Source: Psammoneis japonica
Lineage: Eukaryota
Assembly (NCBI GenBank): GCA_008632985.1
Contig: QPGO01000114.1
Span: 186,001-250,000, forward strand
DNA: 64,000 bases
Direction of reading: 5' to 3'
Part shown: piece by piece, positions 32,701 to 64,000 of the stretch
How the letters are laid out: every line of letters starts with the position of its first letter
How positions within the stretch are numbered: position 1 is the stretch's first letter
Notes under the pieces: generated by a model
Seen by the model: only the letters and a program-made list of their open reading frames with translations
Databases searched by the model: none
What the model was told of the DNA's origin: nothing
Made by a program: the position numbers and the translations under genes

Positions 32701-35610
32701 TTGGGACTGTTGATTGACTTCTCGTCAACAATGATCGCCATTTTGACTTTAGATTCTTCATGTGACAGATTTTTCACAAGAGCTCCATTTTCACAAGATT
32801 CCAGTTGGCGGCACGAGGTCCGATTCTCAAGAATCGATTTTCACAAGATTCCATGCAGGATTCTGCAGAATCTCAGATTCTGCAGAGTGGTTGCAGACAG
32901 TGCTGGATCAGGCATCGGGCATGTTGAATCCATCACAATCATGTGCCGGAACAGGCAGTTGCAACCGACAGTGCCGCTGGCATTTGTCAATGCTCCATCT
33001 TGTCTCTTTTGCATCTCATGTTGGCACATGTGATGATCTCAGCCGACCACAAGGTGGAAAAGGCGGTTGTCGTGATTGGATGTGGTTTTGCAGGAATCAT
33101 CTCAATGGCTCATCATTTGGAAAGAAGTTCAACATGATTTTGTTGGAAGCACGAGATGTGTCTGAGGACGAGTTTGGCAGTTTGGTGGACTTGACAATGA
33201 TGGAGCTTGTGTTGACGTCAGAGTGTCTTGGGTTCATGAAGTGTGTGACGAGAGTCCCTTTTCCAAAAGTTCAGGAACAATCTCAATGTTCCGTTTCATC
33301 AATCAGAGAAACAAGAGCACGCCACAGATGAAAATGACCAACCGACACCCCAATGAATGCAATGCACACCGTCATTGACAAGGATGGCAACAGAACAAGC
33401 AAATCATTGGATCATTTGTGAGCACACAAGGACTGTCTCCGAGCTTCCTCTTGCGTTTCTCTTCTGTCAGAGCTGTTGCAATCCTTGGGAACAAATGCAA
33501 TTCGGAAAAATGCAAGAAGACTTGGAAGCGCTCGCGGGAAAATTGCCTTTTGTTGTGCAGAGGGGAAGCCTGGCGGTCTCTGCATCTTGGGCTCGCCCCC
33601 CCCCCCCCCCCCAGGCGCACCAGGAATTCAAAAATGCACCTTGGCATCGTTTGCATGCAATGAAGATGCTGAGGGCCCCACACAGCCTCGCCCTAAATGC
33701 CAGCGACTGCAATTGGTGACAAAGCCAAACTTGGAACTGCTGAGAGACCACCCAGATGTCAAACAGCACGAGCCTGAAGAAGCCTCAAACCAGTGCAAAG
33801 AGAAGGTTGCAGAATGCACTGAATTCATCCAGGTGACACCAGAAGCACTCACCACGACAGAGATTTCCGCAGATGCACTTGAAATGAAGCGCAGTGCCAA
33901 ATGGGAGCTGTCCACAGTGGGCCAAGACTGGAATGATTTTCGAACCGAAACTTTTTCCCATTGCAGAACAAAAATTCTCGAAGAGGGCCATTGCTGCCAC
34001 AGGTGTGAGACACCCAACGGGAAGACAGCTTTTCTTGAGTGCGGCTGTCACAACATGCTTGCAAATGATCGACATGCAACTGGTGCATGTGGACTTCGCT
34101 TGTGCACAAAGTGCGTGTCAGATTTGGAAGAACTCAAATCGTTGAACCTTGAAGTCTGCAAAGTTTGCAAAACACTCTCTTGCCAGATCAACCCTGAAAC
34201 TGGAAGATGCAGGGACACCAACTGCATGGCTTGCCTGCACAAGGTGGCAGGAAACAGAACCTGCTTGGAGCACATTAAAGGAAAAGGATCCTCAAAGAAA
34301 AAGCGCGTGTGTGAGCTGTGTGTCAATGCACGCTCATTGGTGAAATTGGCGGAACCGACTGTTCAGAGTGTCGCGCCGCTTGACCTGGTGCCAAAAATGC
34401 AACAAAGGCATCGCAACGGTGGCACATGCAGCAACAACCTTTGCGATGGTCACCTCAACAGGGACATCCTGTCGTCTGTCCTTGACCACTGTGGATCTCT
34501 GGAATTGACACGGTTTGCTCTGGCAAGCTGCGACAACTTCCGCTTTTCCAAAGCTTGCGTCAAACGACTTTGTCAACAGTTGAAAAGCATTTCGTGCCTT
34601 CACAATCATTTCACTTGTGGAGCATCCTTTAAAAAACTTCATCATCTGGAGGAAGAAGTCTGTGATCGGTTTGGCTTTTTCGCTGTCGACGACTTTGAAG
34701 GCGCCCAGCATTGCCTTCGACGGCACGACAGACTTTCCTTCACAAAGGCTTGCGCACCACACTTCCACCCATCTAAAGGACACAGCATGATGCATTGTCA
34801 AGACACATTGGAGTTGGGTGCATCATCACTGGCAGGGCTCATTTGTGGCAACAAGATGCTTTGCTCGAATGTGGCATCACACTGTGTGATTGGATGGGTG
34901 AAGTCAACCACATTTGCATCTGCATTTTCCAAGATCGGGTTGGTGTCAACAGAATGTGATCCTTTGGAGCCATGCAGAGAACCCGATTCTCACTGGGTTG
35001 CACACCATGAGTTGCCTTTAAAACTCTTTCTGCCGAGGGAAGAGGATGGTCAGGACTCAGAGTTGTGTGAGGAGACTGAGGCACTTTTTGGACTCAAGCA
35101 TGAAGTCAGTGCCAGGACTCTTTGTCACTTTGTGTTCAGCGCCAATGATCTCCATCGTTTTTGTTGCTGTGATGCATTCGAACAACAAGTCACAGCCGCC
35201 GAGGGACAAGTCCCCGTCAATGACGAGTCAATGCCTGACGGTCCTCTTCATTGGGCAATTGTGACAATCAAGGGTCCTGATGATGGACTCATGTTTGGCA
35301 TCCCGGATCAATTGTCTTTGCGAGATTGCGCACAGAGAACATGAACATGCGCAACTCCTTGCCCGCATCATGGGCAGGAACCGCGGTCACGTCTCGTTGG
35401 TTTAGAGGCACTTCCTGTGGATCAAGATGGAAATTCTTTCTGCTGTCGACAATGTTGTGAAACAACTGCTTGTGCATGTCAAAAACAAATTGTGCTTGCA
35501 CCAGAGAGCAGAGATCATTGCGGCCACAGCTGCCACACACCATGCCGCAGCTGTTGAACAGCTGGCTTTAGAGGAGCATGGCATGTTAATTTGTCCACTC
35601 TCTGCTCCAG
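29730..35610. other. TpA-depleted domain
   Basis: TA is very rare; survivors are mostly CTAA, TTAA or TTAG. Confidence 0.85.
33641..35344 (+). pseudogene. TpA-hypermutated duplicate of an unknown gene (Cys-rich region plus F-box-like segment)
   Basis: The 622-aa ORF contains no Tyr. It is paralogous to 38305-39370 (HLNRDILSSVLDHCGSLEL vs HLNSDILSRVLDFCGSLEL), and the paralog's ATG is TTG here. Confidence 0.7.
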
Positions 35611-37648: not shown

Positions 37649-38304
37649 CGGTAACTCGCTGCTTTGTTCTCAGACAAATGATGGATTCTGGACCGTGCGC
37701 TGAGAATGACGCTCTTGATCTCTACCACTGGGGGGTCTAAAGCTCCGAATGGCATGTCCGTTTTATTTGGGGACTTGAAAATTGAATCATCACAGCTACG
37801 AAAAAGCATTTTTTTCTCTTGCTTCAAGACGATGATATCAATGCAGTGAAATGGAATAGCGCAACCCAGGGAACGCAGATCGATCTCCGTTGTTGGAGTG
37901 ATTGAAACAGAGAATGCGACTGGTTACAGTAAACCCACCCAGTATGCGTTCTAGACGGAAGCAAAATGATGCGAGGAAGCATTATCCAAGTATCGGTCGC
38001 TGTTGCCGATTTCTACTATGCTCTCGCTGACTTTATCATATGAGTTGAAAGATTGGCTGTTTGATTAACGGCGACATATTGAAGTCGATAGAGACGGACA
38101 GGAATAACAGCAATGATGAAATCACGAAATCAAATCATCTTGGATGCGTATAGAAAGATTGAGTTCACTGCCTGTGTAGGAGACTGACTGACGACTCTCT
38201 AGAGAGTAGGCGGGAGCGGAGCGAGCACGCACTCCGAACCACCAGTTCCGTGTTTTCGTGTGAAGCGGTGGCTGCCTCAAAGCTCGAGAATATAAAAATG
38301 CACC

Positions 38305-39370
38305 ATGGCGTCGTTTGCATGCAAGAACGATGCCGAGAGCCCCACACAGCCTGACCCTAAACGCCAGCGACTGCAAGCGGGGACGAAGCCAAACTTGGAA
38401 CAGAGGCGTCGTAACGGTGGTGCGTACAGCAACAATCTTTTCGGTGGTCACCTCAACAGTGACATCCTATCGCGTGTTCTGGACTTTTGTGGATCTCTGG
38501 AACTGATACGGTTTGCTCTGGCAAGTTACGACAACTTCTGCTATTCCAAAGCTTACGTCGGACGACTTTCTCAAACGTTGAAACACTTTTCGTACTTCAT
38601 TGGTCGTTATATCCTTATCCTTTGGAGACATATGGTTTCAGGAGCTAATGAGCTGTCGGTGTTTTGGTTTTCACGCAGTCGCCAACCATGAAGGTGCCAG
38701 GCAGTACCTTCGACGGCACGACAGTCTTTCCTTTACAAAGTCTCACCCGCCAGATATCTACCAATCTATAGGATTTAGTATGATACATTGTGAAGATTCT
38801 CTGGAACTTGGTGTACCGCCACTGATGAGGTTCATTTGTGGCAACAAGATGCTTTGTTCGAATCTGGCATCTCACTGCGTAATTGGATGGTCGAAGTCAT
38901 CCTCATCCGCATTTGTTGATTCTCCCAAGATCGGATTGGTGTCGACAGAATGTGATCCTTTGGCACTATGTAGAGAACCCGATTCTCACTGGGTTGCCCA
39001 CTATGAGTTGCCTTTAAAAATCTCTTAATGCCGACAGAAGACGGTCAAGACTCAGAAGGCGAGAACTCAGACGGCGAAGAGTCAGACGCGGGCAACTTCG
39101 CTGAGGCACTTTTTGGACTCAAGTATGAAGTCAGTACAAAGACTCTGTCTTACTTTGTGTCTAGTGCCAAAAATCTCTATCGCTTTCTTGGGTTGAAACG
39201 TTCCAACAAGTCACACATTCTGAGGGACAAGTCCCCATCAATGACGCGTTAATGCCCGACGGTCCTTTGAAGTGGGCAATTGCGATGGTCCAGGATCCTG
39301 ATTATGAACGCAGGCACGGTACTGGTATTTGGAATCTTTTATTTTTTGCGAGATTGCTCAGAACATGAAT
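38305..39370 (+). pseudogene. Frameshifted, internally deleted paralog of 33641-35344 (TpA intact)
   Basis: Three consecutive ORF pieces (38305, 38600, 39028) are colinear with the 622-aa ORF. Confidence 0.7.
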
Positions 39371-40809
39371 ATGCACAACTCTATGACTGTTCCATCAGTA
39401 GGAACTCCGATTTTGTCTCGTGGATTTAGATGAGGTGTCTGTGGATCAAGATGGAAATGCTTTCTCCCGCCGTTAATGTGAAATAACTGCTTTTACGTGT
39501 CAAAAACAAGTTGTGCTTACATAAGAGATCAGAGATGATTGCAAGCACAGCTACCACACACCATAACGTAGCTAGCTATCGTTAGAGCACAGCATGTTAG
39601 TGTAGCTTTTACTTCCGCCCAAAATTCGTACGCATAAAAGCTGAGACGATTGAGTCGATCAAGAACAAAACATCATGACGTGGCAAAATTCAACTCGCAT
39701 TTTCTTGCTCGGGAGAACCTCTCTACTCTAGCAGCTAGAGGAACAGTGCATTAGTCCCAGGGAGAACAGAACAAAATCCATTTTTTTGGCATCTCATCTG
39801 CAATGCTGCATCAAAGATCTCTCTGGGAAACTGAAACAAAGAGATTTACGGACAGACTGATTGTGCTCAACCGTGATTGGACTGACTTTGTTAAAAAAAA
39901 ACACCACATGGAAGCACCATGTTGTCTTGACTCATTTTGTGAGCTGCGCACTGCACTTCTCACCCACATTTGAGACTGCCCATCTTTCTCACCCAAATTC
40001 TTTCCCAAGAACAATTCCATGCCCTCAGCCATTGGCAGCGGCGGCAATGAAAGGAATTGACCAAAACGGCTGCTGCTTTGGTCCAATCCCATTGTTTGTT
40101 GGCTTGCACTTTGCAAGGCCTGGACAGTGGACTCCTTTCTTTGTGGAACAAGCTGCCCAGCTTCAAAAGAGAGCTGCGCTGGCCAGCACCACAAGAGGCT
40201 CAGCCCTTGCAGCAGAGAAAACTGCTCAGCAATTTTGCTCACTCTGCTTCTGGAACTGGCCAGGGTTTTGTGTCACAATGCACTGGACATTGAGTTGTGA
40301 ATGAAGTGATGCAGAGCAAAAGTCGTGGAGCGACAGGTCGGCGCACATGTGTTGGCAAGGATGTTTTGCACAGTGCGCACATTTTTTGCATGTTTGTGTG
40401 TTGAGCACAAGTGACTGAATCAGAAAATGACAATTGTGCACCTGAAAATTGCTTGGAGCTCCTTCGCTGCACATCACAGAGTTGCTTGCAAACAGCCCCA
40501 AGGGGCGTGCAGGTGGTGGACCTGTGTCTTTGCCAGGGTCCCACCACCACACAGTGAACCCAGAATTTTGACACAGGTGGCGAGCTAAAACGCCGTCAAC
40601 ATGCGCCAAAACCAAGATCTAAGATTTGACCCACCTTGGCAAGCTCGAAGTCCAGCAAAAAGGCTTGCCACATTTTCACTGCGGCCTCGGTCGGCTTGCA
40701 CACGCACGGCGGGTCGTCTCCATGGCGACGAGCGCCCGCGCGCGTCCGCGCGTGAGCAAGAGTGGCAAAAGCACAACCGTCCACATCTGATTTTGCACAC
40801 ATCACCACC

Positions 40810-43239: not shown

Positions 43240-46200
43240 TGAACCGCGACGGAAACGAGAACCTGCATGTGCGGAACGCGGACACAACAAGACAAGAACC
43301 AACCAAACACATCACCGAGAATGCTAAATTCCCCATTCCCGACTCTGACTCCACGTGGCATGCAGCAATCCGCCCGCTTTGTCTCATTGTCCGCCTGTCT
43401 GCCTCGTCCACATCACCTCCCCGAGGAGTCGTCTCCCTGTCCCCGTTTGTTTGGGGTCCACTCTGCTCTCTGGCTAGCTGGCAGCTCTCTGCTCTCTCTG
43501 CTGGAGAGAGAGATTTTCATTTCCACCATCATCCCACCACCTGGCTGTCAACCAAGTGCAAGCTTTGGCCATGGTCAATGTGTTTCATGCCACATCAGAG
43601 CGCGCATTGCAGCGATCACAGACCACCTTTCTCGCAGTCATTTTTTCAATCTGCCACAGCACAAAATTCTGTTGTTTCAAACCTTGACAGTTCTTGTGGA
43701 GCTGGCAACGACATTTCAACTGCAACAGATGAACATTTTTGTGCTGTGGGATCAGACCCCCCCCATGAGGAAAACATGTGTTTTGCCATGAAGCAGGGGC
43801 GCGTTTTCCCTGTGAGAGTGCCCGCCCTCCATCCCCGCAAAACCTGCAAATTAAAATCATTTGCGCTGTGCTGCAAACATTCTGTTTTGTTGCTCACATT
43901 TAAATCAAATGATGCTGATGGAGACAACACCCCAGAGTTTGTGCGGCAGCAGTTGCAGCTCGCTTTCTTGAAGTGCCGCTGCTTTTCAGCAGTTGTCTGC
44001 ATGAAGGGCAACCAAATTTGAGGCACCTTGGAGCACAGACAAGATGTTGGGCTTGTGAAGTCCAGAAAAGCTGCCATGTTTTTGTGCACTCACAACAAAA
44101 TGTCACAATCCAACCACACACCTCCAAAGGTGGACGGAAGTGTGCTGGTGGGAAGCACTGCGGCATCAGAAATCTTCATGGTTGATTTGCTGTTTTTGTG
44201 AAAGAAAAAACATTGTGTGTCTGTCATGGAGCGGCAGCCATGGACAGCGTGCAGACTTGTGGGGGGTCCCCATCAACAGTTTTTCCATGTCCTTGGCTCA
44301 GCGGGAGTCTTTCAAAAATGACTCGTGACATGAAACACACAAAACAATTGAGGGCGCCTGCAGAGTCCAAATGTTTTTGTGCTGAAACTGTTGTGTTCAC
44401 ACAATTTGTGCAAAAACAGACTTGACTGTTGTCGGGTCAGGCACTTTTTTGCAAATGAATTGAAGAAAAATGTGCCTGATCAGCATGTGTGCATGGTCAC
44501 CAGACTGTGCAGGCGTGTGTGCATGCATGAGGTGCAAGGTGCAAGTGGAGAATGATGTGCAGATTTGCTGCCACTGAGTGAGCTGACACGCAATGGATTT
44601 TCCACCAGCACACAACCCCGTGGTCCACATGGAAGATGAATTTGTGTGGGTCTCTTGGGTTTTTGCATGTCATCAAAATTTCTTTGATCTTCAAGAGACA
44701 CACGCCCAAATTCAAAAAATTCAGGGAGGCCGTTCCCAAAACATGTTTGAGGATGAACAAAAAAATTCTGTTTGGCAGTCTGAACAGGCCCAGGGTTGCC
44801 CCGAAGTGCTTCTCAAAATGTTTTTAGAGGGGCAAAACATCCGCCATTTCCAAAAAAGACCCTGCTGTTGGCAAAACAGATCCCAGTCCTTCACATGCAA
44901 ACAGCACCACAATGGCGCAGCAACGCACACAACAAACACCATGGCGGGCAATGCAAGTGTCATTCACTGATCTGCTTGCTGGCATTTCCAGAGAAGATCA
45001 GCACAATTGGACAACATTTGTGCACCGCATTCCTGGGTGAAGTTGGGTTTCTTCTCATTGCTTGTTGCCATGTCATTTTGCAACATTTTGACTTTCTCGT
45101 GTTTTTTGCTTTTTGAAACTTCTGCTTGCGCCAACCACCAACAGCTTTTCCTGCAGGGTGTGGCCAGTTGGATGGTTGCATCGAACCCAAACATGTGCAA
45201 CCAATTGGCCCCACCCCAGCTGACTCACAACCACATGGTCCACAATTGCCTTGGCACCTGTGCTGCAGAGGGTGCTGAGTGGGCCTGTGAGCAATGGCGA
45301 GACAGGAGAAACTGTGAGGAAAAAACTGTGCCACACTCAAAAAAGCATCAAACGCCCAAAAGATGCCATGTGTGCAACAAACAAACATGACCATCACATT
45401 GTCGACACTTTTGTCAGAAGTTCAGCCATTCTTGCCTTTGCAGCCCAAGTGCCAAGCTTGATTGTGAACGCTGCTGTGTCAGACACAGCAGCCCTGTTTG
45501 TGCCTCTCTCAGAGCAAAAGTCACGAAACACCCAAGAGGCAAGGAGCAGCATGAAATCCTCCACTGCAAGCATCATTTTTTCATCATCAGCATGTCAGCC
45601 CACAATGGCATTCATGCCATTGCCGCCACTGCAACGGGTGCCAGGTGGACCTGCGAGCCATCACAAAACAAGAGCAAGAACATTGTGGCGCCCATTTTTG
45701 TTGTTGAGATTCCTTCCTGTTTGTGTCACAAGACATGAAATCTGCCAGACTTGCCCTCACGTCTTCAAGATTTGTGAAAAAAGACACAAGTCCTGGTGCT
45801 CATGACCCAATGATTTTGTGTCTTGTCAACACAAATTCATGTTTTTTCAATGCTTTCCGGAGTGACCCACTGAGGCACATTCCCACCCTGATGATTTCGG
45901 CCGCAAAATGAACACAATTTGGCCAAATTTGTGCATTTGCGAGCATCAGGCTGGGAACAAATTTGATCGGCAAAAAAGATCAAAATCTCATGTCGAGCTC
46001 AGAAAGGAAACTGCACACTCCAGCACTGTTTGCACTGCTGCCAACTCTCTGGCTGGCCAGAGCTTCTAGAAAGGCCAACATCATGACATTGTCAGCAACC
46101 ATTGTTGTCCATTTTGTGATTGCTCTGTGGCAACCAAAGACTCATGATGACACCAGCGAAGGTCAGAAGAAAACACCCAACATCCGATCTGCTGGCAGGA

Positions 46201-48004
46201 GTTGCAGAGAGAGCAGAGAGGCACACAAAACAATGGTGTGCAGCAAGGCTGCAGCACGCAAAACTGCCAAATGAAATTTCCACAGCATGTGAGGTGCTGA
46301 AAGGCGCTGTTCTTAACTCCCGTGGTTTGCCAATGGCCCAAATCCATTTCAAAGAGCAAGGGCCATAGAAAACAGAGCAAAGCACTGTGAGGCACATTGC
46401 CGACAATGTTCTTGTGCAAAACACTGACCCCCACCAGCGTCATTGTCCCAACTTGCAACAAGGTCAATGAGGTGAGTGCACACAGCCTTCTTCACAGTCA
46501 TGTTCCATCTCAAGGGAGCACAAGCCTTCTTGCTGTTGTCATTGACATGACAAAAATTCTTTTGTTTTCTTGACTCTTGACCATCAGTCAAGCAACAACC
46601 TTGAATGTGCGCCAAAGAACCATGTCAACGCAGTGTCAGATCACACATTGCTGCAAAGATTTGGCCTCCAAGTCTGCAGATGCATGGTTTGCAAAGAGCT
46701 CCAATGCAAAATCTGAACAAGAGAAACAATGACATCAAAAACAGCATTGGTCAGCACGGTCGTCACAAGCCATGCCAACAACAAAAACTCAAGATTCTGA
46801 CAAATGGACTGCATCAAGCACAGTCTTGTTGACCTGTCTCTGCATTCTTGCCTTTGCAGACAGGATGGTCATTTGTGCATGAACAGGTCCGTTCATGGCA
46901 GCAGCCACAATGGTTGTTGTGTGGATCAGAGCAGAGAGAGAAGGGTTTTGGGTGATGGGGGCTCCTCTTGTGGCCCCAGATTTCTCCTCAGATGAAAGAA
47001 AAACATCCTGCACTTGTTTGTTGCCAGTTGTGACGAACACAGTCTTTTCGTCTTGCAGCCAACATTGTGGCACTTTCATCTCTGTTGGTTGGCCAGTCCA
47101 CAGTGCACAGCAGCCGCTGCAGCGCTTCAAGTGGTCCACCAAAAGAAGCTTGGCTGCGTGGCTCATCTCTTGTGCTGCAGATGGCTCCTTTCCTTTTGCA
47201 ATCATTTTCTTGTGCAGAGCTGGCAGAAACGCCATTTGACTGCAGCGGCACAGCTGCATGATCTGGCCCCATGCCAACATTGTGAGAGGAGGCCAGCCCC
47301 CGCTGTGGTGGCAGCTCCTGGTCCGGGGCTGTGCCCCGCAGCTGGCCTTGCTGGCGCACAGCCCCACAAACATGCACATTTCCTTTGACGCCAAACCACA
47401 GGAAAATGCACTCTCAGTTGCCTGTCTGTTGTGTTGCAGCAGGTGGATCATTTCCTTTTGCAGCCATTTTTTTCACAAAGAGCTGGCTGCTGGGCTGCCA
47501 AGCAGCCTTGGTGCTGCTGCTCACACCAGGTGCAGTGTGAGAGCAGACCTGACACCTGATTGCTGAGAGTCAGTCTTCAATCTGTCAAGTGCAAACTCAA
47601 ATTTAACCCTTCAACCACCAGGGGAGCAAATCTCCATGGGTGGAGATTTGCTCTGCTGCTCTCAAGAATTTGTGATGCGTCATGCACTCACAGTGCACAC
47701 AGTGTGAAAATGTCACATCATGCACAATCTGCTCCAAGGGTGTGGTGTCATTGCTCTGTTTGTGATGGCAGCTGAAGCAACCTCCATTGTCAAAAAGGTT
47801 GAGATTTGGCTCCTCTCTGTTCACAGATGAAGCTTGCAAAAAAAACCGGTGTTGAAAGTTGACATTTGGCTTTCTAAATTGCAAAAAGGGTTCCCCAGAT
47901 TTTTGGCGAATGTGCGCTCCAAAACAAAATCGCACAAATGAAACACCGCACACATCTGAAATTGCTTCGCTCACCATGTTTGTGATGAAAGCAAGCAAAT
48001 TTCC
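43240..48004. other. TpA- and CpG-depleted decayed repeat domain (continues at 55114-55600 beyond the copia)
   Basis: TA is very rare; contains copies of 18493-18690 (at ~44966-45160) and of 56530-56940 (at ~45250-45660). Confidence 0.82.
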
Positions 48005-48280
48005 TGACAGGATTTGAACAGGATTTAGGTGCGCGCGAAGTATCGCGCGCTGTTTAGTTTACCGTGCACAGTTTTGTGTGCTTTAGTTCCGCGCGTTCAC
48101 GCGCGATGTAGTTTGCTTTCGAGCCACAAGGCTCACAAGAATAATAACAGTAGCCCGATTATACCGACTTACACGTCTCTCGGCTCCTGTAACGGTCTCT
48201 GAGCGGAGACTCATCTGCTATTTAGACAGCAGTAAGGAGTTATTGTTTGAATTCTTGCCATTTGCCTTCAATTTCTGTCA
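48005..48280 (+). repeat. 5' LTR of copia copy 2
   Basis: TGACA...TGTCA termini; direct repeat of 54837-55113. Confidence 0.95.
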
Positions 48281-48295
48281 GATTAACAGTCTTGC
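48281..48295 (+). promoter_or_regulatory. Primer-binding site (complementary to a tRNA-Asn anticodon arm)
   Basis: GATTAACAGTCTTGC immediately after the LTR; the reverse complement contains CAAGA-CTGTTAA-TC. Confidence 0.6.
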
Positions 48296-49218
48296 TCATT
48301 GTCAACCCATTGAGCAACCGCCATCGTCGTCGTTGATTTACCAACGACGCCATTTCAATTCTACGTGGACCCCGTATATATTCTACATACATCGGCAAGT
48401 CTACGCGCATTCGATACCAGGGCATCGGCAGGAAGTTAACGTCACCGTCAAGTCTCCTTACCGCTGGATATCTGGATTGATTATACTACCTTTGACCGCT
48501 GAAGACATACATTCAACGGTCATATCCAAGTCTATCCTTGATCCTCATCCCTTCATATACCCATTCATCGGTTAACGGTCAAGAACCCTACATATTCAAG
48601 GATCTTCGTCGCTGAAGACATGTGTGTATATACACATCTTCACGGCCAAGAACCTGTACCCACTCTTCGGACCACGGTTTTGCTGCCACTCTACAGGCAC
48701 ACCGAGTCCATTGCACCTGATCTACCCCGGACCACTGGTGCTCTACAGTTCTGCCAGGTCCACGAGGACGACTGTGAGAGCAAGCAGCCGTGATTGCAGC
48801 CTGCGTTGGGGCGAGGGTGCTTTCCCACGTTTGTTCGTTCGTCCACAGCGCCTGACGCCTGCGTCAACTGGCCAGCCTGATCGGGAAATCCAACCGACAC
48901 AAAATGAGAACGGTTCGGGGGTCTTGTCCACCTCTGGTCAGCTCACCTGCAGGGGTTTGCAACCCGCCACTCCGCTCGCAAGCAACCCAAAGCGCCGCCA
49001 GCTGCGGGTTCGGACGTGCCGGCACAACTCTGCGGACCGGATGGGAAGTTTAGCACTTGACAACGAACGGGATGACAAAGCCCGGCGACTTCTGATTTTA
49101 AGACAGTTCAAGATTTCAAGTCAAGTCTGTTTCAAGTCAAGTCTGTTCTCACCCAAGTTTCGAGTCTACCTTCTCTTCCCAACCAGAATTGATTGTCCTG
49201 ACACCACTTTTGTCCACC

Positions 49219-52200
49219 ATGGTTCTCACTCGTCAGCAACAAACCGATGGTTTCGAGCATGTGGTTGGAACCGTGCTTGCCCAAGGTGCTGGGAGTCCTC
49301 TTCGTTTGGCTTTGGCCCAAGACGGCACGGACTCGTGTCAGGAACTGTCCACGTTCATGCCGTCCCAAATCGACTCGCTTGAGCACGACAGCGGCACTGA
49401 TGCAATCCCTTTGCCCCGTGGTTATGAGAACATGTCAGCAGCACCAGTCAGTCTGTACATTGTCAAAGCACACAAAGGTCTTGACGTTGCCAACGACTCC
49501 TCTTTGTTCGCGCATGACGAGTTCCTTGCCTGCCGCCTCAGCCCCGACTGCATGTCTTCTGTGTCCATCGGCAGCTCACCCCTTGCACCTCCACATGTCA
49601 CCAACCCAACCAAGGCACGCGACCCGGTGCGGGACTTCAAGCGAGGCATCAAGCGTGATCCCACCGCTTTCACGGCTCTCAAATCCGACAAGCAGTGGCA
49701 CACTTGGCACACCTCACTTGTGGCACAAGCCCGTGCCCAAGACGTCGAGTGCACTCTAAACTCGTCGTACAAACCGACCAGCCCCGAAGACAAACTGCTC
49801 TTTGCTGAACAGCAAAAGTGCATGTTCGCCGTCTTTTGAACGCATCCTCCTCACCAACAAGGGCAAAGCTCTCATTCGCGAAAATGTGGGGTCTTCTGAC
49901 GCACAGACCGTCTGCCGCTCCTTGTCTGAGTGCATGCTTGCCTCCACCCGCGCATCTGTCGAGTCCTCCACCCTGCTCACGCACCTGACCACCGCGCGTC
50001 TTGGTGATGGCACTTGGAAAGGTCCGACCCACGGGTTCATCCTTCATTGGCAAGATCAGTTGCGCAAGTGCGAGGCACTCATCCCGGCCAGTGACCACTT
50101 CTCTGAAGGACAGAAGCGCGTCATGCTCGAGAATGCCGCGCACCCTGTCGAGGAACTCCGTGCTGTCAAGAACCAAGCTGATCAGCATCGTGCGCAGAGT
50201 GGCAAGAGCCTCACATGCGATCAACACTGTGGCTTGCTCCTCTCCGCGGCAGCTCAGTGCGACAGCACGTTTCAACCCAAGACGACACCTCGAGCTCCCC
50301 GACGCGCCATGTGCGCACATGACGTCCACTCCGAGGAACCGTCCGACGATGTGTTCTGCGACATTGACAGCGACGTTGACGTCCTTCAGGCCAATGCTGC
50401 CTGCACCCGCGGTCCCAGCCTCACCGGTGTCCAATGGAGACATCTCCCTCCCGACCACCAACGGCTCTGGGATTCGTTGCCCGATTCCTCCAAGGCGATC
50501 ATCCTTGAGCATTCTCGTCCACCTCCCCGCAACCCGCGAGCCAGCAACTGCCATGAGTCTGTTACGGCCAACCTTCACGACCAACGCCTTGGGAGTGACG
50601 GTGATGTCAACTTGTCCAACACGACTCCTGCTGACTCTGGTGACTCCGCTCCACATGCGGACGCCACTTCGGACAATCCCATCCTGGCGCACCTCACCAA
50701 GCGCAAGCCACTGCCACCCGGTGATCTGCAACGTCTGTTGTCTCCCAACCAAGCCCACAATGCCAGTCGACCGGGGCCATCCGCCGCTTCCTCTGCCCCG
50801 CCAGCTTCTGCAGATGACATGGAACTTGACGGCCGCACTTGCCGCCGCGTCAACAATCACAATGTCATTTGCTCTGCCTCTGCTCATCGCTCCACACGCA
50901 CTGGTGCTCTAGTCGATCGTGGGGCCAACGGCGGCATTGCTGGCGACGACGTTCGCGTCATTGCACGCACCTCTCGCCAAGTCGACGTTCAGGGCATTGA
51001 CGATCATCAATTGGTGGACATCCCCATTGTCACCGCTGGCGCCGTTGTTGAGACCCAGCGTGGTCCCGTCATCGCCATCCTCCATCAGTGCGCATGCACG
51101 GGCAAGGGCAAGACCATCCATTCCTGCGGCCAGCTCGAATGGTGCAAACAGGATGTCAACGATCGCTCTGTCAAGGTGCCCAACGGCTTGCAACGTGTTG
51201 CCACTCCTGATGGCCATGTCATCCCCATTGACATCAAGGCCGGCCTGCCTTGTGTTGCCATGCGACCTCACACTGACGCCGAATGGGACACCCTGCCCCA
51301 TGTCATCCTCACCGGTGATGACACATGGGACCCTTCCGTCCTCGATCACTCTGTCACTGACGACGACCAGTGGTGCGACGCGATCTCTGACCTGCAGGAC
51401 GATCCCACTGCCAACCCATTTGACGAATGCGGCAACTGCCGTCATCGTGTCATTGTCAACGAGACCATCATGTCCGCTTCCTTGTCTGCCGATCACGCGT
51501 CCGCCCTCGATGATCACCTCATTCCGAATGACGACGTGTTCTGCGAGTGTCATCTGCATGCGATTGGCCCCCAGGGCGACGACGTTCCACCTCCGGCGCG
51601 CACTGTGCAGCCCAAGGACCCCCCCTTCGAGTCTCTTCGGCCTTGCTTTGGCTTCTTACCTGCTGATGCGGTCCGTCGTACTTTTGACTGCACCACGCAG
51701 TGCGCCCGCATGCCCGCCGGTGCACACCTTCGCAAGGCCTGCAAATCACCCAACCCCGCCCTTGATGTGCACCGCCGCAACGAGCCTGTCGCCACTGACA
51801 CCGTTCATGCCGACACCCCGGCCGTCGACTCTGGTTGCACCAGCGCCCAACTGTTTGTTGGCACCGAGTCTACCGTCACTGACGTCTGCGGCACTAAGAC
51901 GGACAAAGAGTTTGTCAACACACTCGAGGATCAGATCCGTGAACGTGGTGCCCCATCCAAACTCATTGGCAACCGTGCTCAAGTTGAGATCAGCAACAAA
52001 GTGCTCGGGATCCTACGCGCCCTCTTCATCTCTAGCTGGCAAAGTGAGCCTCACCAGCAACACCAAAACTTTGCCGAACGTCGACACCAGACCGTGAAGC
52101 GCATGGCGAACACTGTCATGGATCGTTTTGGTTCGCCCGCCCACACATGGCTGCTGGCGCTCATGTGCGTGTGCTTCATGCTCAACCATGCAGCGTCCCC

Positions 52201-54889
52201 ACGTCTCCACTGGCGCACGCCCCTCGAGACTCTCACTGGCTCCACCCCGGACATCAGCCCGTTGCTTCGCTTTCATTGGTGGGAACCCGTGTGCTTCCAC
52301 CTCGATGACTCTGATTGGCCGTCTGAATCCCGTGAGTTGCGTGGACGCTTCGTTGGCATTGCTGAGCACGTCGGCCACCAGATGACCTTCAAGATTCTAT
52401 CTGACGAGACTCAGAAGATCCTCTGCCGGTCCAACGTCCGCTCCGCTGCCCCCGATCCTGCCGTTCGAAACCTGCGTCTTGATCCTCCTGATGGGGAGCC
52501 ACCTGAACCCATCATCAAATCTCGCCATGACGACAACCCCGTCGACTCTCCTGATGGGGAGATCAGGACACCCAAGATGCCAGTTTTCGATCCGCAAGAC
52601 ATCATTGGACGTGCCTTCCTCATGCAGCCACAAGAGGACGGACAACGCCACAGAGCTCGCATCGTCAAGGCCGTCGAAGACCACGAATGGAAAGTCAACG
52701 GCAATCCCGAGCTCACTGAGTTCGTCTGCTCTGTCAACAATGATGAATGCGAGGAAGTCCTTGCCTGCAATGACATCATGAATCACATTGAGCAAGAAGA
52801 CGAAGATGCCACTGTTTGGAAATTTCGACGCATCGTGTCGCACGAAGGACCTCTGAAGCCTCACGACCCAACCTGGAAAGGCTCCAGCTACAACATCATG
52901 CTTGAATGGGAAAGTGGGGAGATCACGTCCGAGCCTCTTGCCATCATCGCCAAGGACGACCCCGTCACCTGTGCCATCTATGCACGAGAGAACGGACTCC
53001 TCGACACGGATGGCTGGAAGCGGTTCTGCACCATCGCGAGGCGCCAAAAGAAGCTGTTTCGCATGGCCAACCAAGCCAAGCTTCGCTCCTTCCGCACTGC
53101 ACCTCGCTGCAAGCATGGATGCGAAGTTCCTCGGAACTACAAACACGCCATGTCACCAGACGAACGCAACGGCAATCGCAAGTGGGGAGACGCAACTAAT
53201 CTCGAGATGGACCAACTCGACGAATACGAAGTCTTCCATGACTGCGGGCCCTTCAAGTCTTCCACTCCTCCTGCGGGACACAAGAAGATCCGAGTGCACC
53301 TGGTGTGCGACGTGAAACACGACGGTCGCCACAAGGCACGACTCGCAGCCGACGGGCACCTCATGGACGTACCTGTCGACAGTGTCCACTCCGGAGCAGT
53401 CTCCCTCCGTGGCCTTCGGCTGATGATTTTCCTGGCCGAACTCAACGAGTTGGAGACATGGGCCACCGACATTGGCAATGCCTGCCTTGAAGCCACCACC
53501 AAGGAGAAGCTTTACATTGTGGCTGGACCCGAGTTCGGCAAACTCGAAGGACACATCCTTGTCATCCACAAGGCATTGCATGGACTGCGCAGCTCCGGTC
53601 TCCGCTGGCACGAGCGCTTCGCCGACTGCCTGCGAGCTGAAGGCTTCTTCCCCTGCCGCGCCGAACCCGACATTTGGATGCGCAGGAACGGCGACCACTG
53701 TGAATGCATTGCCGTTTATGTGGATGACCTCGCCATTGCCATGAAGGACCCTCAATCTTTCGTCGACACTCTCACGGAAAAGTGCAAGTTCAAGCTCAAG
53801 GGTGCGGGACCCATTGAGTTCCATCTGGGTTGCGACTTTTCCCGGGACCCCGACGGAACCTTGTGCCTGTCTCCGCGCAAGTACATCGAGCGCATGGTCG
53901 ACAGCTGCGCCCGACTGTTTGGGGAGAAACCCACCACCAACGCCCTGTCACCTCTAGAGAAGGGTGACCACCCCGAACTGGACACTTCCGAACTGCTGGG
54001 ACCCGATGGCATTCACAAGTTTCAGTCTCTTGTTGGTTCACTCCAATGGGCAGTGTCCCTTGGTCGAATTGACATCACCACGGCCGTCATGTCGCTCTCC
54101 AGCTTCCGAGCTGCGCCCCGTCAAGGCCACTTGGACCGTGCCAAATGCGTCTGTGGGCACCTCTCCAAGATGCGACACGGTGCTCTCCGCGTTCGCACGG
54201 AAGAGCCCGACTGTTCGGATCTCCCTGCTCCGGCCTGTGAATGGATGCATTCCGTGTGTGGTGAAGCAGAAGAGATGATCCCGAAGGACGCTCCACCGCC
54301 CCTTGGCAAGTTCGTCACTGCCACCCACTGCGTCGATGCAAACTTGCACCATTGCATGCTCACCGGACGCTCTGTCATGGGAATGCTCCACTTCCTCAAC
54401 AAATTCCCAGCTGATTGGTTCTCTGAGAAACAAGCCACCGTGGAGACTGCGACCTGCGGGTCTGAATTTGTTGCCGCAAGGACTTGTGTTGAGCAGATTG
54501 TCGACCTGCGCATCACCCTGCGCCACCTTGGCATCCCGATCCGTAACGTCAGTCACATGTTCGGTGACAACAAGTCGGTTGTAGACAGTGCCACCATCCC
54601 GCACTCCAAGTTACACAAGCGACACACCGCACTGTCGTTCCACCGTGTGCGTGAGGCAATTGCCTCTGGTTGCCTTGAGTTCCACTTCATCGAAGGCTCC
54701 CGCAACCCTGCTGACATTCTCAGCAAGCATTGGGGTCACTCCCAAATCTGGGACCTTCTCCGCCCCCTCATGTTCTGGAACTTCATTCCATCCGAAGTCG
54801 AATCTGTTTCTGTGGCTCCTCAAGCAAACTGGGGAGTGACAGGATTTGAACAGGATTTAGGTGCGCGTGAAGCATCGTGCGCTGTTTAG
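49219..54889 (+). pseudogene. copia gag-pol with a 1-nt insertion near 49836 and pervasive Tyr>Cys/His changes
   Basis: Protease LVDRGANGG, integrase QNFAERR, RT AVYVDD, RNase H CGSEF..GDNKS..NPADILSK. gtcttttgaa here vs gtcttcgaa in copy 1. Confidence 0.9.
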
Positions 54890-55113
54890 TTTGCCGTGCA
54901 CAGTTTTGTGTGCTTTAGTTCCGCGCGTTCGCGCGCGATGCAGTTTGCTTTCGAGCCACAAGGCTCACAAGAACAATGACAGCAGCCCGATTGTGCCGAC
55001 TTGCACGTCTCTCGGCTCCTGCAACGGTCTCTGAGCGGAGACTCATCTGCTGTTTAAGACAGCAGCAAGGAGTTGTTGTTTGAATTCTTGCCATTTGCCT
55101 TCAATTTCTGTCA
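54837..55113 (+). repeat. 3' LTR of copia copy 2 (TpA-mutated)
   Basis: Follows the PPT and is followed by the TSD. Confidence 0.95.
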
Positions 55114-59249: not shown

Positions 59250-60342
59250 GACTTTCTGTTCTTGTGCCGTTCAGACGTTTCTCGCCATGTGGCACCGGCT
59301 CTAACACAGCAAATGAATCAGCAGCACACAACACATCTGAAAAGCAGCACCCCGACGATGTGGAAATTCAAGCACATGCTGAGTGTGCCATCCATCTACA
59401 GACCTTGCTGTCAGTGTGCGGATGGGAGTGGGGGCGGGGGCTTTGTCATGGAGGAAACCACAGGCAGCCAACAAAGCACTCCTCTCCATGAACATGGTTG
59501 TTCCCAAATGCCTTTGTCACATGAAGGAGTCAGAGGATTTTATGGTGTGCAATTGTTGGGATGCTTTTCAGTGCTCGTTCTTGATGAGATGCTCATGATG
59601 TGTTGCTCTTTCTGAAAGATTTTTTCAAGCTCTCTTTCTGTGACATGTCCCACCTTTTTGTAAGTTGCTTTGCCTGCTTGTGGAGCAAGGAGAAATGTCA
59701 TTGCCGTGTGCTGCTTTGGATGTCTGTCTTGTCTTTTTCCATTGACTTCAGATGTCTGGCAGAACAGTTTGTGCATCATGCTTTGCATGGCTTTGAAACA
59801 TGAACAGTTGTGGCTGATGTGCAAAACCCAAGCAGCAGCAGCTCTTTGGTGTTTGCAGCACTTTTGCAAAGTGCTGCCCAATTTAGCACCCAACTCCAAG
59901 AGCGTCTGAGCTCTCAGTGCATCACTGCAAAAAATGGAAAACTCCTGTGGAAGAGGAGAACATGGCACCAAGTTCACAACATGTCTTGCACATGCTGCCA
60001 CCTTTTGAGATTTGCTTGAGGGGGTGCTCATGCAATGAAAACCAGACAGCAGGAACAGCAGCGGGAATCTGGCAGGAATTGAAATCTCATGTGAGCAGCA
60101 CAAAGACCTCTGCAGTGTCAAGGAAACAGCGACAAAGCAATGAGTTGCATGTTTCTCACCACCAACTGGCAAAAAAGCATCTGTGCCATTGTGCCATTCT
60201 GGCGACATTTCTTGCAATGCAGCACTGGCACCAAGACAGCAAATGAGTGAGCCTTGTTGTCAGCAGCAGAACAGATGCTTCAATGACCAGCACTCTGGAG
60301 AAAACATGTGGAGCCCAAAACAACATGTCACAGCTGCAGCCT

Positions 60343-60374
<32 letters not shown>

Positions 60375-63300
60375 GCATCAATTGCCCTGGTGTTGTGCTT
60401 CAGAAGCACATTCAAAACATTTGCTCTGTTTTCACACTGAGTTGCCAGGTGGAGAGCTGCAAATCTGCCAACACGGTCTGCATCTCATGACAAGGATTTG
60501 ATCCCACCAATCTTGGCTCCATGCTCCAGCAACAGTCGAGCACCATTTTCGTTCCCACCTGTTGCGGCATGTGCTGCAACAGCCTGTGCCCCATTTCACC
60601 TTGTTGGTGGATGTTTGTGTGCTGGGCAGTGCCACATGACAAGAGCCCACAAAGAGTTGACTTGTGCCCACAGATGCAGTTGAGTGCCAGTGGTGTAAAC
60701 CCCCAGTCGTTGCACTCCCATTGCCAAAGAATCAAAATCTCTTGCAGCGTCAGCAACAGAGTGGATGTCTTCCTCTGTTCCAAGCACAACAGCTGTGTGC
60801 AAAACATCCTCAATGTCTGGGAACCGCTGCTGTCCCTTGGCCTTTTGAAGCCATTTGCAAAGCAGCTCCACTCCTTGCTCCCCGAGAGCTTGGACAAAAT
60901 TTTCACGGGGGTTGTCACACTGCGCCATTGCAGAAGTGTTGTGATCAACAAGGACGAACTGGCAAAAAATGTGAAATGTGCAGTGTGATTGTGGCAAGAT
61001 GATGATGGCAAAACAAGGGCAGCAACACACTGCTTGGATGAAACATTGTGCAGTGTGGTGCAATGGAAGAATGTTGCCAATGCTCGCTTGTTTTTTTTTT
61101 GCTTCTTTCTGAGTTCTGCCATTCTCTCGGAAGACTGCTTTTTGTCACACTCACATTTCAAGCTTTTCTCCATTCATCTTCTGATTCAGGCACATTCACT
61201 GGAACACTCTTGCATTTGACCAATGAGCAATGTTGTCATCCCCACCATGAGCAATCCTTGGCAAGGTTGGGGCATCCAAAAGGAGTGGCACTGCACCGCC
61301 ATCAGTCTGCCCAGCATCCGTCCCTGTCAGCACTGACAATGCAGGCAGCTTGAGTGGGAGCAGCTGATGGTGCCACTGGCAATGGGTTGGTTGAAATGTC
61401 ATGTGTCATCAGCATTGTCAAATGCATTCTCTGTGGCAGTCTGCTCCAACTCCTCTGCTGTCAGCTCCAAGGGAGGCTCATTGCTGGAACAGTTTTGAAA
61501 AGCAGCAGCCAGATTGTTGCTCTGTTCTTCCCAACCTGGCCTTGCAATTTTTTCCAACAGGCCACAGCAGTCCACTCCTGTGGTGTCCTTGAGCATTGCC
61601 AGCTCTTGTGTCACTTTCCACTTGTTGTGGTGGATTCTGAGCACAGAAGGGAGCTTGGGAAAAATCGTGACATGGCCCACTTTCAGTTTGAACAATCTTG
61701 CCAACACAACCCAAGTTTTCCAGGTGGGTTTTGAATGATTCCTTAAGAAAATCATTGCAAATCCACTTTTCGTTTGGATGGCTGATGTGCAATGGGGGGC
61801 CTCTGAGTTCCATGCATTCTTGCAAAAAAGCAAGAAGAGCCCCTTGTGTGAGATTTTGCATGTCGACATTACATTGAGCAACACACGGCATGCAGGGCTC
61901 ACCAGCAAGAAACTTCAAGTTGCCTGTGAGCTTGGGATCTGGTGTGTCTTGGTGCTTGACAAACTTTTCACCACAAGTCAATGGCCCCACTCCAAGTGCA
62001 ACAAACTCCTCTGCTGGTTTGAACAAGGACTGGTCAGTGTGGTGGGGAAATGGATCACAGCCAAACAACTTGAGCACTGAAAGTTGCACTCAATTGACAA
62101 CATTGTGACATGGCATGCCAAAGTCATGGCAATCACCACATCACATCCCAGCATTTGTGCTGCATTGACGTGTGTGACAAGGAGAAGCAAGAAGTGCCCC
62201 ACCTCTGCACCAAACTTGATTGCAAAACATTGGGTGCACATTCTGGCTGTCCGACAGCTCAGATGCTGGAATCTTCCCCGCACACCTCACATTTGCAATT
62301 TGGGCCTTCAAAACACTGCAAAGCCACAAATGCAGACATGGATCCAATGCCGCACACTCCTTTAAGTCCTCACAGATTTTCATGATTCTCCAGTCTGCAT
62401 TCTGGCCAAACTTGTCAATGCATGCCTCAAGAAGTCAAGCACAGAGTTTTTGCATGCTGCAGCCCTCCAGATGATTGGAGCCCAGTTGTTTTGCTAACTC
62501 CATTGTTTCAATTGCTCTTGGCGGTGCACTGATTTCCAAGAGCATGGCATCCACCAACATCAAATGAGACATTCATGGCAGCAGGAATGCCTTTTGGAAG
62601 CTGGCGGCATGTCAGCTGCATCAAAAAGACCTGTTTCTGTCAAGTCAAGAACCACGACTTTATCGCAGAGCTGGGGTGGAAAGCATGTCTGAACCACCCG
62701 CGTTGTCAATCAAATGCATTGGCTGACAATGCCACCCATGGGACTCAAGAGTGCCACACTTGCCACAGTGGATGCATTTGTGCTCATTCAGAGCCAACCT
62801 TGTGGATTTCCCATTGTGCCCAAATGGGTCAAAATGAAAAACCCATGCAGCCCCCTTTGCCCAATTAAAAGGGTCAAGAGTCAGAAGTGACACAGCTGAA
62901 ATGTTGGGCGGATGCCACTGCTGCTTGCTGTTCTCACATGCACCTGCATTGCTGGAGCTCATGACTGCATTCTTGACTCCTTCCAAGCAATTCAACAGCA
63001 GTGAGCCAGGCTGGGGTTTGCACTGAGACAACTCACACTCTTCTTTTTTGTTGCTTTGCTGATGTCATGTTCAGTGTCTTCATCACAGTCTTCATCATTG
63101 TCGCTAAAACGCGCCTCGTCATCGTCGTCACCTTCCTCCTGTCCTTGTGCCAACCCAGTTCTGGCAATGTCTGCAGCTGCAGCGAGCCTCTCCAGTGCCT
63201 GAATTTGCTTTTCCTCATCTCTCTTCTGTTTGTTGAGACACTCTTGTGCCAGAGCCTCTTGTCTTTCCCTTGCTCTGTCTGCTGGCAGCTCTGCTTCTGC

Positions 63301-64000
63301 TGCTTTCTGCTGCTTGGCTTGTTGCTTGCACCAAGCTTCTGCAACTGTCAACACCAGCTGAGCACTCTGCTTTTGAGCCAATTCTTTGTTTTGATCATGC
63401 TTGGCTCCAAAAACAGCTCCTTGTCCTTTGGCGTGCGAGACTGGTCTGCCAGACCCCTTTCCATTGCTGCCACTGCTGGCTCCGCCTGTGGCAATGGTGC
63501 TTCACAATGTGAGTGTGAGAGCAATGGAAAGCATTTGTGAACATCTGGGTTGCTGCAGTGTGATGACTCCTCTTGCTTTGCTTGAGTCAAGTCAATCAAA
63601 AAGCTCTGCCCACGCCAGGTGAAAAAATGCCTTTTGCACCACATGGATCTGTGCGGAGTGTTCCTGATCTTTCATTGTGCTCATTTGTTGGATGAAAAAG
63701 GTTGTTGGTGTGCAACGACCAACTCAGGTCAACACGTTGCCTTTCATTGACATCAACAAGCACCGGCACACAAACCCTGTTTCACCTCTGGAAAAGTCAA
63801 AGCATTTGGGATGTCACAATGGAAAGTGTCTCAAGCCAAGCTCTGGGTGCACACTGAGGGTGCCATCTCCAACAGCTGCTTCTTTGCAAAGATGACAATG
63901 CCCATCATTGCAAACAAAGTTCAACCTCAAATGATGCCAGTGGAGAGGTGCCTTGTGCACCACTGCACTGGCTTGTCAAAGAACCAAATGACATTGCCAA
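59250..64000. other. TpA- and CpG-depleted decayed repeat domain running to the window edge
   Basis: TA is very rare and TG/CA saturated; no recognisable intact domain. Confidence 0.8.
59345..60100 (+). pseudogene. TpA-mutated tandem duplicate of the MYND gene 3' end and its downstream region (58285-59100)
   Basis: cccgacgatgtgga.attcaag, catgaaca.ggttgttcc.aaatgc, tcaagctctctttct and ggctttgaaacatgaac are shared. Confidence 0.75.

Follow-up and report, generated by a model that had tools for sequence, protein, structure and literature searches.

The window analysed here, a 64,000-nucleotide stretch of Psammoneis japonica (contig QPGO01000114.1 of assembly GCA_008632985.1, positions 186,001 to 250,000 of the forward strand), carries two copies of one Ty1/copia-type long terminal repeat (LTR) retrotransposon, a complete copy B and a copy A cut by the window start, within a mosaic of ordinary DNA and of blocks from which the dinucleotide TpA (TA) is nearly absent (Table 1). 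An original prediction, made from the sequence alone, had drawn attention to an open 1695-amino-acid (aa) frame in copy B and had proposed that the element was silenced by missense changes from Tyr to Cys or His. The missense loss of Tyr is real in this open reading frame (ORF), while its proposed scope was too narrow, as the loss follows from a wider TpA purge that takes in 56% of the window, non-copia DNA included.

Two copia copies and the loss of tyrosine

The LTRs of copy B are direct repeats of 276 and 277 bp with TG..CA ends (TGACAGG...TCTGTCA), and a 5-bp target duplication, TTTCC, flanks the element on both sides. Pfam recognises the RVT_2 domain (PF07727) in copy B at 84 bits (E = 1.7e-23) and in the truncated copy A at 38 bits; with the threshold relaxed to E <= 5, Pfam returned no rve domain for copy B, for copy A or for P0002, an intact homolog, and the region N-terminal to the reverse transcriptase, where an integrase would lie, aligns along its length with full-length copia polyproteins. 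The relatives of the 1695-aa ORF, for which one search gave 1599 hits and an exhaustive one 45,923 at E <= 0.001, are copia polyproteins of marine and other metagenomes, the best of them at 72% identity. The two copies are 96.4% identical over 5653 bp by self-BLAST. The end of copy A is directly adjoined by a 119-bp repeat (5651-5769 and 10026-10144, 88% identical), so that copy A also lies in repeated DNA.

The 1695-aa ORF does not make up a complete polyprotein, since the gag side is split off and the 3' end lies within the LTR. Compared with copy A, copy B has an additional T near 49834, which breaks its gag-pol frame into two ORFs (49189-49839 and 49802-54889) at a point where copy A and the homologs read through, and the second ORF terminates 53 nt inside the 3' LTR (LTR start 54837). 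Copy B therefore has no uninterrupted gag-pol frame, with a 1-bp insertion and with 33 of its 47 conserved Tyr replaced. Four sequencing runs were found, all of one sample and study that may be the assembly's own data, and they do not count as independent support; some of their X1-X2 contigs lack the extra base at 49834.

The predicted count of 7 Tyr in the ORF is exact (0.41%, beside 62 Cys and 84 His), where 79 full-length homologs have a mean of 3.79% Tyr, with a minimum of 2.86%, and a mean of 0.92% Cys. At the 47 columns with Tyr in at least 70% of these homologs, copy B reads Cys at 21, His at 12, Tyr at 7, Phe at 4 and Ala and Ser at 1 each. Tyr is thus kept at 7/47 columns, compared to 715/858 for all conserved columns (Fisher p = 1e-26), and the non-Tyr residue classes keep 77-97% of their columns (e.g., Arg 62/66, His 31/32, Trp 22/23). 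The Tyr of the YVDD motif, at 53717, is among the seven that are kept.

The altered motifs that had been listed are present, KALHGL, GNACLEA, ATCGSEF and THCVDANLHH standing where the homologs read KALYGL, GNAYLEA, ATYGSEF and THYVDANL. Three codons at which the two copies disagree were likewise as predicted: KAL(H/C)GL, with CAT at 53579-53581 in copy B and TGT at 77-79 in copy A (Tyr in 79/79 homologs), DSV(H/C)SG at 53387 (79/79) and DTV(H/C)AD at 51806 (77/79). Cys or His in homologous active elements at these columns had been named in advance as what would count against the idea; neither residue marks the columns in any set of homologs, and the idea was not refuted. Three such codons proved to be an undercount, as among the 27 columns where half or more of the homologs have Tyr and both copies have Cys or His there are 13 with Cys in both, 7 with His in both, 4 His/Cys and 3 Cys/His, or seven discordant pairs, and the DNA of the two copies differs by 44 CA<->TG doubles.

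Table 1. Features of the 64-kb window, with the main support for each (positions count from the first base of the window; TA and CG values are observed/expected ratios).
Feature	Positions	Strand	Support or remarks
Copy B, complete Ty1/copia-type LTR retrotransposon, 7109 bp	48005..55113	+	self-BLAST LTR pair, target-site duplication, RVT_2
5' LTR of copy B, unpurged, 17 TA sites kept	48005..48280	+	LTR trio alignment
3' LTR of copy B, 13/17 TA sites altered	54837..55113	+	self-BLAST, LTR trio alignment
Target-site duplication TTTCC	left 48000-48004, right 55114-55118		flanks of copy B
Unpurged 5' segment of copy B (LTR and leader), 48 TA	48005..48754	+	250-bp bins
Gag-side N-terminal ORF of copy B	49189..49839	+	severed from pol by 1-bp insertion near 49834
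1695-aa ORF, 7 Tyr, TA 0.11, CG 0.92	49802..54889	+	ORF translation
RVT_2 reverse-transcriptase domain, residues 1157-1368	53270..53905	+	Pfam
Copy A of the same element as copy B, cut by window start	1..5650	-	self-BLAST
Copy A ORF, open for 1489 aa	2..4468	-	ORF list
Copy A LTR	5377-5650	-	self-BLAST
Gypsy-type RNase H remnant, in TA-poor patch adjoining copy A	6813-7271	-	RT_RNaseH, E = 4.5e-6
Purged patch, TA 0.10	7001..7800		beside the gypsy-type RNase H remnant
Small purged patch, TA 0.03, CG 0.38	10201..10800
Old purged block, TA 0.03, CG 0.13, CA/TG 1.7-1.95	17701..24800		tandem repeats inside
Purged block, TA 0.04, CG 0.44	30001..35400		includes the 640-aa ORF
640-aa ORF, 0 Tyr, 8% Cys	33422-35341		purged paralogue of 38233-39564
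Unpurged paralogue of 33422-35341	38233..39564	+
Purged patch, second unit of tandem segmental duplication	39801..40700		unpurged partner 35906-36288
Purged block hosting the copy B insertion, TA 0.03, CG 0.32	43301..47900
Purged block, TA 0.04, CG 0.20	59301..64000

Direction and context of the TpA change

The differences between the copies are almost all of one kind. The observed/expected ratio (o/e) of TA is 0.11 in the 1695-aa ORF and 0.13 in copy A, with a normal CG o/e (0.92 and 0.90) and more CA and TG than expected; in the reverse-transcriptase region of copy B there are 6.7 TA per kb, compared to 33-77 per kb in ten normal relatives. Copies A and B differ at 200 positions, 197 of them transitions and 3 transversions, which can be written as 156 events: 44 CA<->TG doubles, 51 TA<->TG/CA, 47 CG<->TG/CA, 11 other transitions and the 3 transversions. 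A ladder of steps TA-(CA/TG)-CG accounts for 142 of the 156 (91%), and ordinary divergence comes to about 14 events in 5.65 kb.

Although TAY had been claimed as the only common one-step ancestor of TGY and CAY, CGY (Arg) fits equally. As an ancestor of the Cys/His pairs, CGY is ruled out by Tyr in 77-79 of the 79 homologs and by the arithmetic of the doubles: with 47 single CG changes over ~480 CG sites, fewer than one CG-derived double is predicted, and hence the 44 doubles derive from TA. The claim that TA is ancestral was nonetheless correct, on the evidence of Tyr in the homologs and of TA, CA and TG at the same sites of the three LTRs, and it is from these two sources, outgroup homologs and LTR trio, that the direction of change is read at the level of sequence. 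Over 858 conserved columns, the one-step transitions of copy B are TA>TG at 33, TA>CA at 15, CG>CA at 8 and CG>TG at 3; A>G or T>C changes number 48 in the TA context and 7 outside it, and T>C before C accounts for 2 events. The signal is that of a TpA-specific A:T>G:C process and is not directed at tyrosine. An alternating tract at 48621-48626 reads TGTGTG in copy B and CACACA at its copy A counterpart, the pattern that a (TA)n run would leave if one strand had been converted in copy A and the other in copy B.

The three LTRs available in the window give the most direct view of the change. The same site may read TA, CA and TG across the three, for which TA is the only one-step ancestor. The 5' LTR of copy B keeps TA at 17 sites, of which 6 read CA and 7 read TG in the 3' LTR, so that there are 13 TA-derived changes on the 3' side and none on the 5' side. 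The remaining differences between the pair are two CG>TG changes and one CA/CG, with no other substitution in 277 bp. The copy A LTR carries TG or CA at many sites where the 5' LTR of copy B has TA, often the opposite of the copy B 3' LTR, and about 5 of the ~10 sites mutated in both of these are discordant. An insertion starts out with two identical LTRs, and with 13 TA-derived changes between those of copy B either the change took place after integration and very fast, or the first 750 bp of copy B have been overwritten from an unpurged copy. LTR-divergence dating would be badly inflated in such DNA, as the LTRs of copy B differ by 6% without any ordinary substitution.

These first 750 bp hold 48 TA (o/e ~0.8), and at ~48755, as resolved in 250-bp bins, they give way abruptly to TA-free DNA. 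Copy A is altered at 36 of the 48 sites (27 TG and 9 CA). At the leader sites 48624 and 48626, where copy B has TG, most X1 contigs carry A, which restores TA. The proposal that the copies were mutated independently stood in part: the 44 CA<->TG doubles and the discordant LTR sites agree with it, whereas about half of the internal changes are apparently common to both copies. With only 7 of 27 Tyr columns discordant, many changes predate the split of A and B, and a partly purged element was still being copied.

The bases that flank TA strongly shape its survival. Relative to normal DNA, survival in purged DNA is highest for TTAA (0.34), followed by CTAA/TTAG (0.22), CTAG (0.12), GTAA/TTAC (0.09) and GTAC (0.06), and falls through CTAC/GTAG (0.034), ATAG/CTAT (0.028) and ATAA/TTAT (0.026) to ATAC/GTAT (0.010) and ATAT (0.009); in the old blocks alone, no ATAC/GTAT and no GTAC are left. 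Where ancestral states are known, from the first 750 bp of copy B against copy A, 17 of 18 RTAY sites had changed, compared to 2 of 7 YTAR sites (p = 0.002). RTAY is the most sensitive motif and YTAR is refractory. The choice between TG and CA as the outcome is independent of the flanking bases (p = 0.78 and 0.88). For CpG loss, GCGC is the best survivor and ACGT the worst; a context rule shared by CG and TA loss was considered and rejected, as CG loss does not follow RTAY.

Purged blocks in the window and in related elements

Purged DNA makes up 35.6 of the 64 kb of the window, in nine blocks with a TA o/e of 0.03-0.10, and the unpurged remainder of 28.4 kb has a TA o/e of 0.5-0.7. The longest TA-free run extends for 1798 bp (17693-19491). 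The recognisable genes (an amidohydrolase, a guanylate-cyclase domain, PhyH and a lipase) all occur in normal blocks. Older purged blocks are also poor in CpG (o/e 0.13-0.44), leaving complex sequence nearly without TA or CG, and because these blocks have lost most of their CpG and yet stay TA-free, where C>T changes would regenerate TA, we infer that TA is removed continuously in place. The purged DNA is repeated, with a summed X1 depth of 240-3003 on 44001-48000 compared to 65-79 for single contigs.

A tandem segmental duplication with a period of ~4 kb (33422-37100 and 38233-41039, 74-86% identical) places purged and unpurged versions of the same sequence side by side. At the 46 TA sites of the unpurged 38388-39564, the partner at 34390-35543 has CA at 21, TG at 13 and TA at 3. 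Purged and unpurged patches alternate between the duplication units, each segment being purged in one unit only. The 640-aa ORF within the duplication is without a Pfam match, and a Pfam search of 79 stop-to-stop ORFs of the purged blocks returned a single hit, the RT_RNaseH fragment at 6813-7271 on the minus strand. By self-BLAST, tandem arrays occur at 20709-21788 (~200 bp units) and 22187-23606 (~330 bp), both within the TA/CG-free block, and at 28861-29303 (85-90 bp), in normal DNA and with ORFs open on both strands. A single N, at 32208, lies inside a purged block.

The effect on coding capacity is peculiar in that the process is unable to produce a new in-frame stop, because any G that it introduces stands after a T, and stop codons contain no C at all; the one change left is TAA>TGA, which replaces one stop with another. 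This bears out and extends the earlier expectation that few stops would be created. Over six frames, TAA and TAG together number 18.5 per kb in normal DNA and 2.2 per kb in purged DNA, and because they are nearly gone, ORFs stand open in many frames: 11 ORFs of at least 150 aa overlap 49000-56000, on both strands. Software that searches for ORFs will consequently predict long spurious proteins in purged DNA, free of Tyr and rich in Cys and His, and Tyr-poor, Cys/His-rich false models are already present in public protein sets ('ena', 'jgi'). The bimodal TA o/e offers a one-line screen for the purge in other algal genomes.

Among the sequencing runs, X1 contigs with a single-contig word depth of 65-79 match the TA/CG-free flank at 44172-47508 with 0-1 differences, and 13,953 X1 contigs align to the window stretch at 88% identity or more. 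The differences among the X1 contigs are nearly all transitions, among them C>T and A>G in pairs at CA/TG sites, at intermediate shares. The same signature is seen in other copia families, from the metagenomes of other projects, which do count as independent support. Of 50 metagenome loci related to the element, 47 have a TA o/e of 0.52-1.02 and three are TA-poor: L036 (0.13), L029 (0.27) and L014 (0.31). Another copia family, with 0.6-0.9% Tyr, is represented by L036 and L029, two copies in which YVDD reads CVDD and HVDD, respectively, and which disagree as Cys versus His at several columns; they differ by 21 CA<->TG doubles and 25 TA<->TG/CA among 96 events, compared to 8 and 31, respectively, among 398 in a control pair that has diverged to a similar degree. 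Tyr below 1.5% with raised Cys and His characterises 5 of 387 retrieved copia proteins. L014 (1065-2759; 3.0% Tyr, 3.2% Cys), a copia relative purged in part, has the appearance of an intermediate stage.

The best named hits of the amidohydrolase, at 50-53% identity, are from the diatom Seminavis robusta, and the label 'diatom-type' is reasonable on that account, the host genes having their closest matches among diatom genes; a protein-atlas search with the amidohydrolase gave its family without an informative taxon. This gene (Amidohydro_3, 15520-17472, minus strand) has many alphaproteobacterial relatives at 45-50% identity beside diatom relatives at 50-60%, and from these alignments the gene family may be of bacterial origin in diatoms.

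Explanations of the purge and known systems

The purge has a consistent pattern and direction, is specific at the level of di- and tetranucleotides, affects both strands, occupies patchy domains with sharp edges and recurs in other copia families. The reading that we favour, with a probability of about 65%, is hypermutation of A:T>G:C specific to TpA (RTAY), acting in situ at the DNA level and aimed at the silenced or repeated DNA of a diatom-like host. From the sequence comparisons we infer that the action is in situ on DNA and probably enzymatic. After integration, one of the two A:T pairs in a 5'-TpA-3' step would be converted to G:C, TA becoming TG or CA according to the strand attacked; the palindromic RTAY would be preferred and YTAR spared, and the purge would run near completion far faster than ordinary substitution. 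TAY Tyr codons would become Cys or His, along with other missense changes at codons that span TA, while TAA and TAG would be erased in all frames with no stop made, so that dead elements would retain long ORFs. CpG would be lost from the same DNA by the usual CG>TG/CA route and more slowly, such that young copies would be TA-free and CG-normal and old blocks free of both. Candidate chemistries are deamination of adenine in DNA by an activity that prefers a 5' T, or an oxidised thymine (5-hydroxymethyluracil or 5-formyluracil, 5hmU/5fU, made by a TET/JBP-type enzyme) that mispairs with G at TpA, and to judge from sequence the two would predict the same pattern.

Several observations weigh against this reading. 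The outcome on the sense strand is biased (62 TG to 30 CA), and a run of 16 TG to 1 CA occurs in the copy A LTR and first leader; both hint at strand-coordinated events, which an in-situ model alone does not explain. Fully independent hits would be expected to leave ~50% of the Tyr columns discordant between A and B, as opposed to the 7 of 27 found. The 5' LTR and leader of copy B escaped purging despite purged DNA on both sides, so that a simple model of spreading heterochromatin does not fit, and the first 750 bp could have been gene-converted from an unpurged copy, in which case the changes of the 3' LTR need not be post-integration. Repetition alone is not the trigger, because some repeats, such as the stretch 56530-56859, are unpurged. 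The non-copia purged blocks are without a recognisable transposable element (TE) domain apart from the one RNase H fragment, yet may conceivably be old retroelements.

Part of this evidence would suit editing coupled to retrotransposition, in which a deaminase that prefers a 5' U or T edits the element RNA (TA>TG) and the minus-strand cDNA or RNA:DNA hybrid (TA>CA), and new copies arrive pre-mutated, as with APOBEC3/ADAR on retroviruses. The elements are retrotransposons, there is a sense-strand bias, and the internal changes common to A and B show that mutated templates were copied. Further, the X1 contigs mostly carry TA at the leader sites and CA/TG mixtures with few TA at internal sites, which resembles a profile of change low in the LTR and leader and high in the interior. 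We nonetheless consider such editing quite unlikely, as the LTRs of copy B differ at 13 TA sites, all altered on the 3' side (with gene conversion of the 5' LTR as the alternative), both strands are affected, as the 30 CA outcomes and the 44 sites at which the two copies read CA against TG attest, the switch at ~48755 is abrupt without a gradient, and tandem segmental duplicates and blocks free of TE domains are purged as well. The CpG-depleted old blocks that stay TA-free would also require continued action in place. Unlikely too is an origin without a dedicated pathway, as a side effect of repair or replication where heterochromatin is methylated; for instance, error-prone patch repair of 5-methylcytosine (5mC) deamination mismatches might make its errors at TA, and GC-biased gene conversion between copies might add to the effect. 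The purged blocks are the CpG-depleted blocks, AT>GC is the direction that biased conversion favours, and a very large family (13,953 X1 contigs) leaves ample room for conversion. This has to be set against the 48 A>G/T>C changes in the TA context and 7 elsewhere, the 3 transversions in 200 differences, a saturation above 95% at RTAY and the different flank rules of CG and TA; moreover, young copies are TA-purged at a CpG o/e of 0.92, so that TA loss does not depend on prior CpG decay.

Two further explanations carry little weight. An artefact of sequencing or assembly, with modified bases misread as CA or TG, is very improbable and largely refuted: purged DNA is probably heavily modified and the four runs may be the assembly's own data, but contigs at a word depth of 65-79 reproduce the TA/CG-free flank, the signature recurs in metagenome contigs and proteins of other projects, and the CA-versus-TG differences between copies are stable site by site. 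That active elements adaptively avoid TA, by selection and without a mutation bias, is scarcely credible. Copy B does keep the YVDD Tyr and six others, but the kept Tyr cluster in 52889-53882, where TA outside the coding phase also survive, 33 of 47 conserved Tyr have given way to other residues, the purge reaches LTRs and non-coding blocks, the YVDD Tyr is lost in L036 and L029, and copy B is frameshifted.

Repeat-directed hypermutation is known as C>T, in repeat-induced point mutation (RIP) and by APOBEC, or as A>I at the RNA level. If in-situ hypermutation is the correct reading, a genomic TpA-specific A:T>G:C process would add new chemistry to eukaryotic genome defence. Under the bolder reading of a dedicated pathway, new insertions would be disabled in a time too short for ordinary substitution, the erasure of Tyr codons and of all TAA/TAG would leave dead elements as stop-free ghost ORFs, and, together with CpG decay, heterochromatin would be driven to a TA-free and CG-free state. 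The purge may point to a natural DNA-editing activity for A:T>G:C whose motif is short and palindromic. Literature searches that did not extend to subscription journals or preprint supplements returned no account of TpA>CpA/TpG hypermutation, whether from diatoms or from other organisms, and the purge appears to be an undescribed form of repeat-directed hypermutation; that it is a distinct pathway with a new DNA-editing chemistry is possible, at something short of even odds.

Like the CoDi Ty1/copia elements of diatoms, as described in parts of PMC2806351, the element is of copia type, with its nearest relatives among marine and freshwater metagenome copia polyproteins. A look-up of terms in the accessible text of PMC2806351 returned no point mutation, deamination or dinucleotides, the sole 'transitions' being those of nutrient regimes, and across two diatom TE and epigenetics papers, this one included, such look-ups returned no TpA>CpA/TpG hypermutation. 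The purge resembles the deamination of 5mC at CpG in its self-complementary YpR target, its CA/TG product and the blocks in which it occurs. Deamination explains the loss of CG only (47 A/B differences) and not that of TA, and CG loss is here much slower, the copia copies having a CG o/e of 0.92 at a TA o/e of 0.11. The targets of APOBEC3 and ADAR are RNA or cDNA prior to integration, with edits on a single strand, and ADAR, with its 5'-U preference, would give UA>UG. Their deaminase-type, transition-only, context-dependent hypermutation inactivates retroelements as the purge does; unlike them, the purge affects both strands, has diverged an LTR pair and extends to non-retro duplicates.

We know of no 5hmU marking by TET/JBP enzymes in diatoms. 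In dinoflagellates, another SAR lineage, 5hmU made by TET/JBP is enriched at repeat elements and required for TE silencing, according to passages of PMC11572971, which also cite older work in which 5hmU preferentially replaces T in TA and TC. Repeats and TA are involved in both cases, whereas TC, the other dinucleotide named there, is unaffected here. The same passages of PMC11572971 report no mutational outcome of 5hmU. These reports make the thymine-oxidation route worth testing.

Tentatively, and at something short of even odds, the purge can be seen as a dedicated diatom genome-defence pathway, a chemical mirror image of RIP that would rewrite RTAY in silenced or repeated duplex DNA by A:T>G:C, through a DNA adenine deaminase or perhaps a TET/JBP-type thymine oxidase with a product that pairs with G. 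RIP in ascomycete fungi depends on RID or DIM-2 and makes TpA from CpA. Both are in-genome hypermutation of repeats and transposons, transition-only, defined by a dinucleotide and acting on either strand, and both leave patchy, sharp-edged tracts, a footprint of dinucleotide skew and destroyed coding capacity. As in RIP, transitions are confined to repeated DNA, since 197 of 200 differences are transitions, the purged blocks are repeated and the genes are unpurged. Diatom DNMT4 enzymes, whose function is given as unknown, are related to fungal RID according to parts of PMC9998398, while a cytosine methyltransferase-like enzyme is incapable of TpA>CpA/TpG chemistry. In the purge TpA is the substrate and CpA/TpG the product, the reverse of RIP, and GC content is raised where RIP lowers it. 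RIP creates many stop codons and the purge is unable to create any. RIP mutates both copies of a duplicate, whereas here one copy per segment of the tandem duplication (33.4-37.1 kb and 38.2-41.0 kb) is purged, and the host, in place of an ascomycete, is a diatom-like stramenopile.

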